Notes under the pieces: model-generated
What the model was told of the DNA's origin: nothing
Database searches by the model: none
Seen by the model: the letters and a program-made list of their open reading frames with translations, nothing else
Origin: a virus
Taxonomy: Duplodnaviria; Heunggongvirae; Uroviricota; Caudoviricetes
Direction: 5' to 3' (one strand)
Length of the DNA stretch: 13,967 nt
IMG/VR virus record: IMGVR_UViG_2703718846_000001
Position numbers and translations under genes: made by a program
Shown: piece by piece, positions 1,491 through 13,967 of the stretch
Layout of the letters: every line of letters starts with the position of its first letter
Numbering within the stretch: the stretch's first letter is position 1

Positions 1491-1874
1491 ATGCGTGATA
1501 TTCAGATGGTTCTTGAGCGTTGGGGAGCGTGGGCGGCTAATAATCATGAAGATGTGACCTGGTCGTCCATTGCCGCCGGTTTTAAGGGATTAATTACTTC
1601 AAAAGTAAAATCTCGCCCGCAATGTTGTGACGATGACGCGATGATCATTTGCGGGTGCATGGCCCGTCTGAAAAAGAACAACAGCGATTTGCACGATTTA
1701 TTAGTAGATTATTATGTAGTCGGTATGACATTCATGTCACTGGCAGGTAAGCATTGCTGCTCTGATGGTTATATCGGGAAAAGGTTACAGAAGGCTGAGG
1801 GTATAATTGAAGGGATGTTAATGGCATTAGATATCCGGTTAGAGATGGATATCGTTGTTAATAACTCTAATTAA
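1491..1874 (+). CDS. quuD: Late-gene antiterminator Q (QuuD/phage-82/21 type)
   Basis: 127-aa product [24 protein letters not shown]... with Cys-rich segment ([18 protein letters not shown]) typical of Q-family zinc-binding antiterminators; GGAG 9-12 nt upstream of ATG 1491. Confidence 0.85.
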
Positions 1875-1960
1875 TATGCCAGTTGTTTACTAAAAGTTAT
1901 TAAAAATGGGGCGTTGCAACGCCCCCAAAAATAAAGGGTAATATATAACAGAAGGTTTAT
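1875..1960 (+). promoter_or_regulatory. Putative late promoter PR' with qut site just downstream of Q
   Basis: Position only: in lambdoid phages PR'/qut lies directly after the Q gene and before tR'. Candidate -35/-10 pairs (TTGCAA...TAATAT with 19-nt spacing) are weak and I cannot fix the hexamers with confidence. Confidence 0.3.
1907..1924 (-). terminator. Perfect 18-bp GC-rich palindrome followed by a T-rich tract on the minus strand; likely terminator of the nmpC transcript
   Basis: GGGGCGTTGCAACGCCCC at 1907-1924; on the minus strand it is followed by ATTTTTAATAACTTTT; lies ~140 nt downstream of the nmpC stop. Confidence 0.4.
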
Positions 1961-2013
1961 ATAGTTAGAAGCAAGGTTGTGCTCCTAAAGGAAGTGGCTT
2001 GAGGGAGCCACTT

Positions 2014-2053
2014 ATATGTTGGGGAGGCAAAGCCTCCCGCAACATATCTTTTT
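2014..2053 (+). terminator. Rho-independent terminator tR' for the short PR' transcript (read through when Q acts)
   Basis: ATATGTTGGGGAGGC-AAA-GCCTCCC(G)CAACATAT: 15-bp stem with one bulged G, followed by CTTTTT at 2048-2053, ~175 nt after the Q stop. Confidence 0.6.
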
Positions 2054-2063
2054 CGTAATCAGA

Positions 2064-3161
2064 TTAGAACTGGTAAACCAGACCTACAGCAACGATGTCA
2101 TCAGTGCTTACACCGAGTGCTTTAGTGAAGTCATTTTTGTCAAGCAGGTTGATTTTGTAATCAACGAAAGTAGACATATTTTTGTTGAAGTAATAGGTTG
2201 CACCTACATCAACATATTTGACTAAGTCCTGATCGCCCCATACTCCAAGATCCTTACCTTTAGATTGCAGGTAAGCAACGGACGGACGCAGACCGAAATC
2301 GAACTGATATTGTGCAACAGCTTCGAAGTTTTGAGCTTTATTAGCAACGAAGTGATCAGCAAATACAGTCATATTCTGGGTTTCAGAATAGGTAGTGGCC
2401 AGGTAAATGTTGTTAGCGTCATATTTCAGACCTGCGGCCCAAACTTCTGCATTTTTACCGGAAGCAAATACTTCAGGAAGAACTTTCCCTGCATTAACTT
2501 GAGTGTCGGTACGATCAGATTTCGCATAAGTTGCACCGATACCGAATCCTTCGTATTCATAGGTAGCAGAGAAACCGAAGCCATCACCGTTACCTTCAGT
2601 GTAGTTATCGAAATCGCTACGATCGTTTTTGCCTTGGTACTGAGCAGCAAAGTTCAGACCATCAACCAGACCAAAGAAGTCGTTGTTACGATAGGTTGCA
2701 ACACCAGTGGTACGACCAGTCATGAACACATCTGTTTGGGTCCAGGTATCGCCACCGAATTCTGGCAGAACGTCAGTCCACGCACCGATGTCGTATGCTA
2801 CACCGTAGTTACGGCCGTAATCGATTGAGCCGTAGTCACCGAATTTCAGGCCTGCAAATGCAAGACGGGTTTTGTCTTTGGAGGAACCTTGAGATTCAGC
2901 GCGGTTGCCTTTGAATTCATATTCCCACTGACCGAAACCAGTCAGCTGATCGTTGATTTGGGTTTCACCTTTGAAGCCAAGACGGGCATAAGTAGTATCA
3001 CCATCATCTGCATCATTAGAGGAGAAGTAGTGCTTAGCATTAACTTTCCCGTACAGATCCAGCTTGTTACTGTCTTTATTATAAATTTCAGCTGCCTGAG
3101 CAGACATCGCCATCAGTACTGATGCAGCTACAGCAGAAATTGCCACTGTTAATTTTTTCAT
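2064..3161 (-). CDS. nmpC: General porin NmpC/Lc (OmpC/OmpF family), intact
   Basis: 365-aa ORF; N-terminal signal peptide [23 protein letters not shown]|AEIYNK; porin-family sequence throughout; C-terminal ...VGLVYQF ending in Phe as in outer-membrane beta-barrels; no IS interruption. Confidence 0.95.
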
Positions 3162-3734
3162 CGTGAGCCCTTTTTTTTGAACTATTATTAAAAAATGATG
3201 TCACTGCGCGATAAATATTCATCTAATCAATGTGATTATTTCAAGATGTAAGTTTTGGTTTCTCGTTTGATTTGTGAAGTAGATCTCTATTTTTATCTGA
3301 ACTTTTTTCTATCGAATCCTATTTATAGCTCTTGGCTGAATAAAAATAAATCTATTAGCCAATTTATATTAACGGCTGTTATTTATAAGCGCTCTATAAT
3401 TTGAAGGTTCAATTTAAATTGGCTAAAAATAACACTGGAAATTATTTGTTGGTTATTTGTTGAGATTTGCTTATGTATTTGTAGTGGTGTTTTCAATACT
3501 CGGTAGCATTCTCGCAAATATCATTTAGTGGTTTACGTACGTAAAAAATTGGTTATGCTGTTAAGAGTGGTTACTTCGTCACACAGCTTAAACCCGCCGT
3601 CGAGCGGGTTTTTCCATTTTTTGAGTCTCGATATTAGCTGATAACCCAATACCTGAGTTATTCACTGACTCCGAGTCTGTTACGTTTCGTAGTATTCCCT
3701 CAATTTACACCCGCTTTGTCTGCGAGGTGGGGTT
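3162..3734. promoter_or_regulatory. AT-rich 573-bp intergenic region holding the nmpC promoter (minus strand) and the lead-in to the lysis cassette
   Basis: No ORF of 60 aa or more on either strand; long A/T runs; tandem repeat TTATTTGTTG x2 at 3443-3462; 10-bp inverted repeat TAGCCAATTT / AAATTGGCTA at 3356-3365 and 3416-3425. Confidence 0.4.
3590..3626 (+). terminator. Candidate rho-independent terminator ~110 nt upstream of the holin start
   Basis: AAACCCGC-CGTCGA-GCGGGTTT (8-bp stem) followed by TTCCATTTTTT. Confidence 0.35.
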
Positions 3735-13383: not shown

Positions 13384-13967
13384 TGGCATTCAGAATGAGT
13401 GAACAAGCACGGACCATAAAAATTTATAATCTGCTGGCCGGAACTAATGAATTTATTGGTGAAGGTGATGCATATATTCCGCCTCATACAGGTCTGCCAG
13501 CAAACAGTACCGATATTGCACCACCAGATATTCCTGCTGGCTTTGTGGCTGTTTTCAACAGTGATGAGGCATCGTGGCATCTCGTTGAAGACCATCGGGG
13601 TAAAACGGTTTATGACGTAGCGTCAGGGGACGAGTTATTTATTTCTGAACTCGGTCCGTTACCGGAAAATGTTACCTGGTTATCGCCGGAAGGGGAGTTT
13701 CAGAAGTGGAACGGCACAGCTTGGGTGAAAGATGCAGAAGCAGAAAAACTGTTCCGGATCCGAGAGGCGGAAGAAATAAAAAACAGCCTGATGCAGGTAG
13801 CCAGTGAGCATATTGCGCCACTTCAGGATGCTGTAGATCTGGAAATCGCAACGGAGGAAGAAACCTCATTGCTGGAAGCCTGGAAAAAGTATCGGGTGTT
13901 GCTGAACCGTGTTGATACATCAACTGCACCTGATATTGAGTGGCCTACGAACCCTGTCAGGGAGTAA
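13383..13967 (+). CDS. tfa: Tail fibre assembly protein Tfa
   Basis: 194 aa, [54 protein letters not shown]..., lambda Tfa-like over full length; stop at the last base of the window. Confidence 0.9.

Follow-up and report, generated by a model that had tools for sequence, protein, structure and literature searches.

In a 13,967-nt stretch of tailed-phage DNA (Caudoviricetes; IMG/VR record IMGVR_UViG_2703718846_000001; hereafter, the window), the convergent genes quuD (plus strand) and nmpC (minus strand), which encode the late antiterminator Q and a prophage porin, are separated by a short spacer (positions 1875-2063) that is rich in hairpins. The question raised by this locus is to which RNA, and on which strand, these hairpins belong. 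The original prediction made from the letters alone had offered two answers, i.e., a Q-regulated transcript on the plus strand that starts at the late promoter PR' and ends at the terminator tR', and on the minus strand a structured 3' untranslated region (3'UTR) of nmpC, of the type that gives rise to the porin-regulating small RNA (sRNA) IpeX. Here, we find that the second answer was right and understated: judged by its sequence, the spacer is the known IpeX sRNA locus, the 3' tail of the porin mRNA, and thus an already known element. Altogether, we hold with considerable confidence that IpeX in the window is the nmpC 3' tail, that it is carried by a porin moron lying between Q and PR', and that it is a candidate for pairing with the ribosome binding sites (RBSs) of host porin mRNAs. 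It is this predicted antisense pairing, to the RBSs of ompC and ompF, that is worth following up.

ipeX was reportedly described by Castillo-Keller, Vuong and Misra in 2006 (J Bacteriol 188:576) as the 3'UTR of nmpC/lc in DLP12 (qsr') and PA-2. The spacer is 97% identical to that of the DLP12 prophage of Escherichia coli K-12 and 96.8% identical to the region downstream of lc in phage PA-2 (J02580). It follows the nmpC stop codon (2064-2066) directly, on the porin strand and convergent with quuD, and the annotations of the E. coli C41 and K-12 DLP12 prophages agree with this arrangement. Counted from 2066, the first base of the stop codon, to 1900, the end of the U-run of a Rho-independent terminator, the minus strand comprises exactly 167 nt. 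Published IpeX is a 167-nt RNA from DLP12 that is made within the porin transcript and processed (PMC12197685) and that lowers OmpC and OmpF (PMC5069750; PMC7177473). We infer that the published 167 nt correspond to the end points 2066 and 1900, and we therefore place ipeX at 1900-2066 on the minus strand. Because the spacer matches the ipeX region of K-12 and PA-2 and the distance from the stop codon to the end of the U-run equals the length of published IpeX, the minus-strand reading of the locus is the correct one.

The fold of the spacer is consistent with this assignment. The three strong hairpins noted previously are all present, with small corrections, at 1908-1925, 1992-2013 and 2014-2047. 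On the minus strand, the predicted structure begins with hairpin 1 (2014-2047; 15 bp, a 1-nt bulge and a UUU loop; -23.3 kcal/mol), which is directly abutted by hairpin 2 (1992-2013; AAGTGGCT-TGAGGG-AGCCACTT). The latter has a stem of 8 bp rather than 7 and a 6-nt loop, and lies somewhat to the left of its earlier placement near 2000-2020. Next come hairpin 3 (1965-1988; 9 bp, 6-nt loop), which is part of both the minimum free energy and the centroid structures, a weak hairpin consisting entirely of A-U pairs (1942-1963), a U-rich single strand, the terminator hairpin and the U-run. The minus-strand fold has a free energy of -62.4 kcal/mol (z = -7.76), and none of 200 dinucleotide shuffles was as good; relative to such shuffles, the plus strand has a z value of -4.44. 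Scored singly, the hairpins have z values of -6.0 (hairpin 1), -5.5 (hairpin 2) and -3.0.

The terminator of nmpC/ipeX is formed by the 18-nt perfect palindrome GGGGCGTTGCAACGCCCC, which exists as originally described but occupies 1908-1925 rather than 1907-1924. As RNA, it forms a 7-bp stem with six G-C pairs and a 4-nt loop, and on the minus strand it is directly followed by ATTTTTAA (U-run at 1902-1906). This arrangement of a G+C-rich stem-loop, a U-run and the tail AUUUUUAA is that of an intrinsic terminator. A terminator scan called 1908-1925 on the minus strand only, as had been anticipated for the palindrome. On the plus strand, the hairpin is flanked by A-runs on both sides and, for this reason, cannot stop plus-strand transcription. 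Based on this organization, we suggest that transcription from the nmpC promoter would proceed leftward through the stop codon, that the transcript would pass the three stable hairpins and the weak A-U hairpin and end at the terminator and its U-run, and that processing from the porin mRNA would then release a structured RNA of ~167 nt. The same terminator may also shield quuD from antisense read-in.

To describe the variation of ipeX, we aligned 26 distinct alleles, taken both from IMG/VR and from E. coli loci; the mean column identity is 97%. The alleles differ in the loop of hairpin 1 (T, G or A), in its bulge (C, T or deleted) and in the loop of the terminator. The terminator stem is invariant; its loop has four variants, TGCA in the window and CTCA, TTCA or TGAC in other alleles, and the perfect palindrome is peculiar to the TGCA-loop allele found here. 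Overall, 97.2% of the alignment cells are paired, compared with 40-55% if the partners are slid against each other. In hairpin 3, 99.6% of the cells are paired and three pairs vary, each of them to G-U only. Hairpin 2 carries one T-A to G-C double change (in locus L081). Among the 26 alleles, double changes are found in 2 pairs only, and shuffles match the observed values in 5 of 500 cases. In Escherichia albertii, a compensatory C-G to U-A change affects the loop-closing pair of hairpin 1.

Of 5426 complete E. coli genomes, 2510 carry the spacer. When the regions behind the 80 closest porin genes across the Enterobacteriaceae were searched with nhmmer, ipeX-like 3'UTRs were found in E. coli and E. 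albertii only. In E. albertii NBRC 107761 (L092, positions 231-2670), a 96%-identical porin gene with an ipeX-like 3'UTR lies beside chromosomal ycgN and ycgM-like genes; this segment contains a bor/iss-like lipoprotein gene and no Q or lysis genes and is a prophage remnant. Homology ends there right after the U-run of the terminator. In a second locus (L007), the porin gene and ipeX are present and quuD is absent.

Does the plus strand carry a late leader in addition? According to the original prediction, PR' lies just 3' of quuD, the short transcript ends at the 2014-2047 hairpin acting as tR' (then placed at 2014-2053), and QuuD antiterminates into the late genes through antisense nmpC. A location of PR' and tR' directly after Q is the usual one in lambda-type phages. 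The hairpin is also strong on the plus strand (-22.7 kcal/mol; z = -6.1), and it does have the 15-bp stem and the T-run ascribed to it, with CTTTTTCG (2048-2055) and hence five T next to it; a single bulged base (G2039) breaks the stem, and the hairpin proper ends at 2047. Moreover, alignment of the quuD 3' end with the Q/PR' region of VT2-Sakai reveals a remnant of the PR' -35 region (GTTTAC..TAAAAGTTAT) at 1885-1899 on the plus strand. However, this remnant is not followed by a -10 element, and a promoter scan found no sigma-70-like promoter on the plus strand between 1875 and 2013. Similarly, TAAGAGTGGTTAC, a conserved initially transcribed block that starts just 3' of the PR' -10 element and runs into the annotated Q-utilisation site (qut), is absent from 1875-2063, where we searched for Q-utilisation or Q-binding elements; it occurs once in the window, at 3562-3574, and homology to the corresponding cassette of Shiga toxin (Stx) phages is confined to 3531-3613.

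The cassette is complete at the latter position. On the plus strand between nmpC and essD, we find PR' at 3532-3559 (TTTACG, a 16-nt spacer and TATGCT), which aligns with the "putative late promoter" of VT2-Sakai and phi24B; the block with the qut position of Stx phages at 3562-3580; and tR' at 3590-3619 (stem-loop at 3590-3611 plus T-run), which was called by the terminator scan and aligns with the Stx-phage terminator, sharing its stem but having a different loop. The cassette (3532-3619) is ~78% identical to the one annotated in VT2-Sakai and phi24B, and 3531-3613 aligns base for base with their annotated late promoter, qut and terminator. In these phages, which encode the closest relatives of QuuD, the late promoter is annotated at a position overlapping the end of Q, with qut and the terminator coming after it. 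By analogy, tR' at 3590-3619, which lies ~115 nt upstream of essD, would be the terminator that Q must override. Because the PR'-qut-tR' cassette lies at 3532-3619, the hairpin at 2014-2047 is not tR'; the spacer hairpins are ~1.5 kb away from the late-gene leader. They also accompany the porin gene in the two loci without Q (L092 and L007), the base of the 2014-2047 stem is A-U rich, and most alleles have only four consecutive T after it (CTTTTAG). We consequently consider a PR' transcript terminated within the spacer as highly improbable. As a separate observation, a short terminated transcript of the 3532-3619 cassette (~50 nt) would correspond, in DLP12-type prophages, to the StxS RNA of Stx phages.

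A PR' -35 region resembling that at 1885-1899 recurs intact at 3531-3549, and the copy beside quuD looks like a junction or duplication left behind by the insertion of an nmpC-ipeX unit. That only a -35 remnant lies beside quuD, while the full cassette lies beyond nmpC, argues that this unit (~1.65 kb) is a moron that was inserted where Q and PR' meet. Based on tblastn of phage records, nmpC-ipeX is missing from Stx phages whose Q is related, and these phages show the pre-insertion state. Among QuuD relatives in IMG/VR, the pre-insertion state was not found: the 80 listed loci all encode an identical QuuD, and nmpC-ipeX is present in all that are long enough. One locus (H186) that seemed to have quuD and the terminator without nmpC was rejected as an IS5-associated deletion. 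Between nmpC and PR', we also noticed a tandem direct repeat of TTATTTGTTG with 1 spacer base between the copies (3442-3462, plus strand); it lies upstream of both PR' (by ~70 nt) and the nmpC start (by ~280 nt) and is possibly a regulator binding site.

While hairpin 2014-2047 is not tR', it may have a second role on the plus strand as the intrinsic terminator of the early rightward operon whose last gene is quuD, stopping quuD transcripts that lack antitermination. The quuD and nmpC transcripts would then each run past the terminator of the other and overlap by ~155 nt, and the tails of quuD mRNAs would be antisense to IpeX. The hairpin sits exactly where rightward transcription would enter antisense nmpC; its 15-bp stem (-22.7 kcal/mol) is followed by at least 5 T within the next 8 bases in the window and most alleles (tail CUUUUUCG); and the 1908-1925 hairpin is unable to terminate on this strand. 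Against such a role speak that the terminator scan did not call this hairpin, because the bulge interrupts the stem, that the stem base beside the T-run is A-U rich, that the T-run has between 3 and 5 T depending on the allele, and that the A-rich 5' flank of IpeX hairpin 1 accounts for the same bases. Taken together, we regard a plus-strand terminator at this site as a tentative possibility toward which the evidence does not lean.

Returning to IpeX as the product of the locus, we compared it with the K-12 leaders and then ran a windowed duplex search that includes opening energies. This search replaced whole-molecule RNAduplex predictions, which were dropped because they gave meaningless long-range duplexes. 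For ompC, two helices are predicted. In helix A, 5'-AACCUUCUGUUAUAU (1943-1957, minus strand) pairs without interruption over 15 bp, including one G-U, with positions -21 to -7 of ompC (AUAUAACAGAGGGUU), including the Shine-Dalgarno (SD) sequence GAGGG. In helix B, 5'-CCUUUAUUU (1929-1937, minus strand) forms 9 bp with positions -31 to -23 (AAAUAAAGG), inside the target site of the sRNA MicC. The two helices are separated by a 5-nt bulge and together place 1929-1957 on ompC -32 to -6, with a hybrid energy of -26.4 kcal/mol and of -16.6 kcal/mol after opening costs. The longest invariant run in the 26-allele alignment (24 columns) contains helix A of this proposed seed, and the predicted fold exposes the anti-SD part of the seed in the loop (ACCUUCUG) of the weak A-U hairpin.

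The complementarity to ompC is beyond chance. When the ompC leader was dinucleotide-shuffled 3000 times, no shuffle reached a helix of 15 bp (maximum, 13). In 654 kb of enterobacterial DNA searched for helices of at least 14 bp with at most one G-U pair, the only matches besides the antisense of ipeX itself were 26 ompC-type leaders with the identical 15-mer. After correction for accessibility, IpeX scores -16.6 kcal/mol with ompC and -11.8 kcal/mol with ompF, where the duplex covers the SD and AUG (-15 to +10); it scores -3.4 kcal/mol with ompA and -4.4 kcal/mol with its own nmpC leader. Relative to shuffled leaders, ompC has a z value of -4.7 and ompF of -3.9, and none of 150 shuffles was as good in either case. 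In the same scoring, the validated pairs MicC-ompC (nt 1-17 with -31 to -14) and MicF-ompF score -17.4 and -18.7 kcal/mol, respectively, and other non-cognate pairs -3.7 to -9.8 kcal/mol. For ompC, the predicted pairing thus combines an accessible seed with complementarity beyond chance, as in an RBS-occluding antisense RNA. We found no report of IpeX-ompC pairing in the literature searched, and this complementarity has apparently been overlooked. In ten Enterobacter-type genomes, we also noticed that the IpeX sequence UAUUACCCUUUAU has a perfect 13-nt complement, AUAAAGGGUAAUA, on the ompC strand ~680 nt upstream of ompC (L168:816-828, L164:813-825, L160, L155, L153, L144, L141, L136, L130 and L124).

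Based on these duplexes, we suggest that the conserved and weakly structured segment 1929-1957 may base-pair with the host porin RBSs, i.e., with ompC at -32 to -6 (15+9 bp) and with ompF at -15 to +10. Such pairing would block translation, and a lysogen making the phage porin would turn down the host porins; the leader of the phage porin itself, being unmatched, would be spared. IpeX, which for 20 years has been cited as regulating porins by other means than base pairing, would then act as a conventional antisense RNA that occludes the ompC RBS, over the MicC site, and the SD/AUG region of ompF. On balance, we lean toward this mechanism, if only slightly. The primary IpeX study reportedly found that the effect on ompC is Hfq-independent and that on ompF Hfq-dependent, and reportedly concluded that no base pairing is involved. 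The proposed pairing would explain the reported phenotype of lowered OmpC and OmpF with OmpA being unaffected, and the long ompC duplex would account for Hfq independence and the short ompF duplex for Hfq dependence.

Alternatively, IpeX could repress OmpC and OmpF without any RNA-RNA pairing, e.g., if its hairpins titrate a protein factor, and the complementarity would be a relic of an inverted porin-leader fragment. Reviews state that IpeX does not base-pair with ompC and ompF (PMC3617542; PMC12197685), and, according to PMC8313858, IpeX affects ompC independently of Hfq. Moreover, 1928-1960 on the plus strand reads as a degenerate ompC-type leader (AAATAAAGG..ATATAACAGAAGGTT) without a start codon. 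This resemblance suggests that the seed arose from an inverted porin-leader fragment, and common descent could, therefore, explain the match. However, 15+9 bp over the SD sequence of the genetically defined target are expected to block ribosome binding whatever their origin, and a long duplex is also compatible with Hfq independence. Likewise, the duplex energy equals that of the validated MicC and MicF pairs while the non-targets ompA and nmpC score poorly, and conservation within the RNA is highest in the seed. We consider repression without pairing to be a serious but rather doubtful alternative.

Apart from the denial of pairing in the reviews cited above, several points weigh against our interpretation of the locus as a whole. 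The ompF match comprises 10 bp and is not significant by helix length (389 of 3000 shuffles), and part of the seed is held in the weak hairpin. The covariation analysis is underpowered (97% column identity and 2 double-change pairs), and its statistics are uninformative because the divergence among alleles is too low; wobble-compatible sites number 5 on the minus and 4 on the plus strand and, thus, do not discriminate the strand under selection. Both the 5' and the 3' end of IpeX are read from the sequence, and exact ipeX coordinates or primers were not found in the literature supplements searched. Rfam has no IpeX family that could provide confirmation at the family level, and searching it with the spacer at E values up to 10 returned only chance, terminator-driven matches (TarB and AniS). 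The ipeX hairpins seem unlike the consensus of repetitive extragenic palindromic (REP) elements. A REP call for ipeX has been published (PMC12306157).

The flanking genes and the source of the window fit a common prophage type. quuD (1491-1874, plus strand; RefSeq name quuD) encodes a protein of 127 aa that matches Pfam PF06530 (E = 3.5e-53), is 78-81% identical to Q of 933W, phi24B, VT2-Sakai and H-19B-type Stx phages and has a distant resemblance to the Q21 structures 6p18 and 6jnx in PDB (E = 7.6e-7). nmpC (2064-3161, minus strand) is intact and encodes a porin of 365 aa (Pfam Porin_1, E = 1e-156); its mRNA extends into the spacer. The 2.4 kb around the spacer are 100% identical to a DLP12-type prophage of E. 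coli C41, in which quuD, the porin gene and essD are annotated, and are matched by thousands of E. coli chromosomes. These matches identify the window as a DLP12-type lambdoid prophage of E. coli in which nmpC is intact.

Other observations concern the surroundings of the spacer. An A+T-rich imperfect inverted repeat of 20 nt (1855-1874/1887-1906; 80% complementary) spans the quuD stop codon. A 69-aa open reading frame (ORF) at 2016-2225 (plus strand) is antisense to the 3' end of nmpC and starts inside hairpin 1; the annotation of phage 434B lists its counterpart as a hypothetical protein and marks an RBS for it, and the ORF is probably not a gene. In the genome of this laboratory phage (OL657227.1, 41277-44868), the quuD-ipeX-nmpC::IS5-essD segment of K-12 DLP12 replaces the phage's own segment; it is labelled in the annotation as a region of 434 non-homology and is a qsr'-type recombination with the host's cryptic prophage. 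Near the end of the window (13726-13924, plus strand), the sole Rfam match at the gathering threshold, RF02111 IS009 (227.8 bits; E = 2e-56), lies inside a plus-strand ORF.

As an element, ipeX is ordinary: this prophage sRNA locus is already known, and nearly half of the complete E. coli genomes have it. What the locus adds for DLP12/PA-2-type prophages is that the Q-dependent late leader lies beyond the porin moron; because it does not abut Q, hairpins adjacent to Q should not be read as tR'. If the predicted ompC and ompF duplexes are real, the "novel mechanism" of IpeX would be canonical RBS occlusion, and IpeX would join MicF and MicC in a scheme in which every porin gene comes with an RNA for the silencing of rival porins; in this instance, a phage would bring in the silencing RNA, as the 3'UTR of the mRNA for its own porin. 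Because phages use OmpC and OmpF as receptors and antibiotics enter through them, such silencing would be relevant to superinfection exclusion and to permeability in lysogens.

Compared with IpeX of K-12 DLP12 and PA-2, the element in the window has the same position after the nmpC stop codon, the same strand, the same convergence with quuD, the same length and nearly the same sequence. It differs from known alleles in the TGCA loop that makes the terminator a perfect palindrome and in the A-run before hairpin 1, which is one base longer than in most alleles. In K-12 DLP12, an IS5 copy located 58 bp ahead of the stop codon splits nmpC; here nmpC is intact, and the porin promoter can therefore give rise to IpeX, as in PA-2. 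In lambdoid phages, the PR'-qut-tR' leader gives rise to short transcripts such as the 6S RNA of lambda and, from PR' of Stx phages, StxS; in the window, this cassette is outside the spacer, with the 1.65-kb nmpC-ipeX insertion between it and Q.

The duplex predicted for IpeX and ompC spans the MicC site (ompC -31 to -14) and extends over the SD sequence, and the strings GUUAUAU and CCUUUAUU are common to IpeX and the 5' end of MicC. Like MicC, which is encoded next to ompN, and MicF, which is encoded next to ompC, IpeX is linked to one porin gene and has other porin genes as targets, with the pairing being predicted in the case of IpeX and denied by reviews. Unlike MicC and MicF, IpeX is a co-transcribed porin 3'UTR rather than a divergent gene with its own promoter, and its seed is divided into two blocks by the 5-nt bulge. 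Finally, nmpC resembles other phage morons in having its own upstream region and an intrinsic terminator and in lying antisense to the phage operons, here between Q and PR'; it differs from them in that the 3'UTR of this moron itself regulates host genes.

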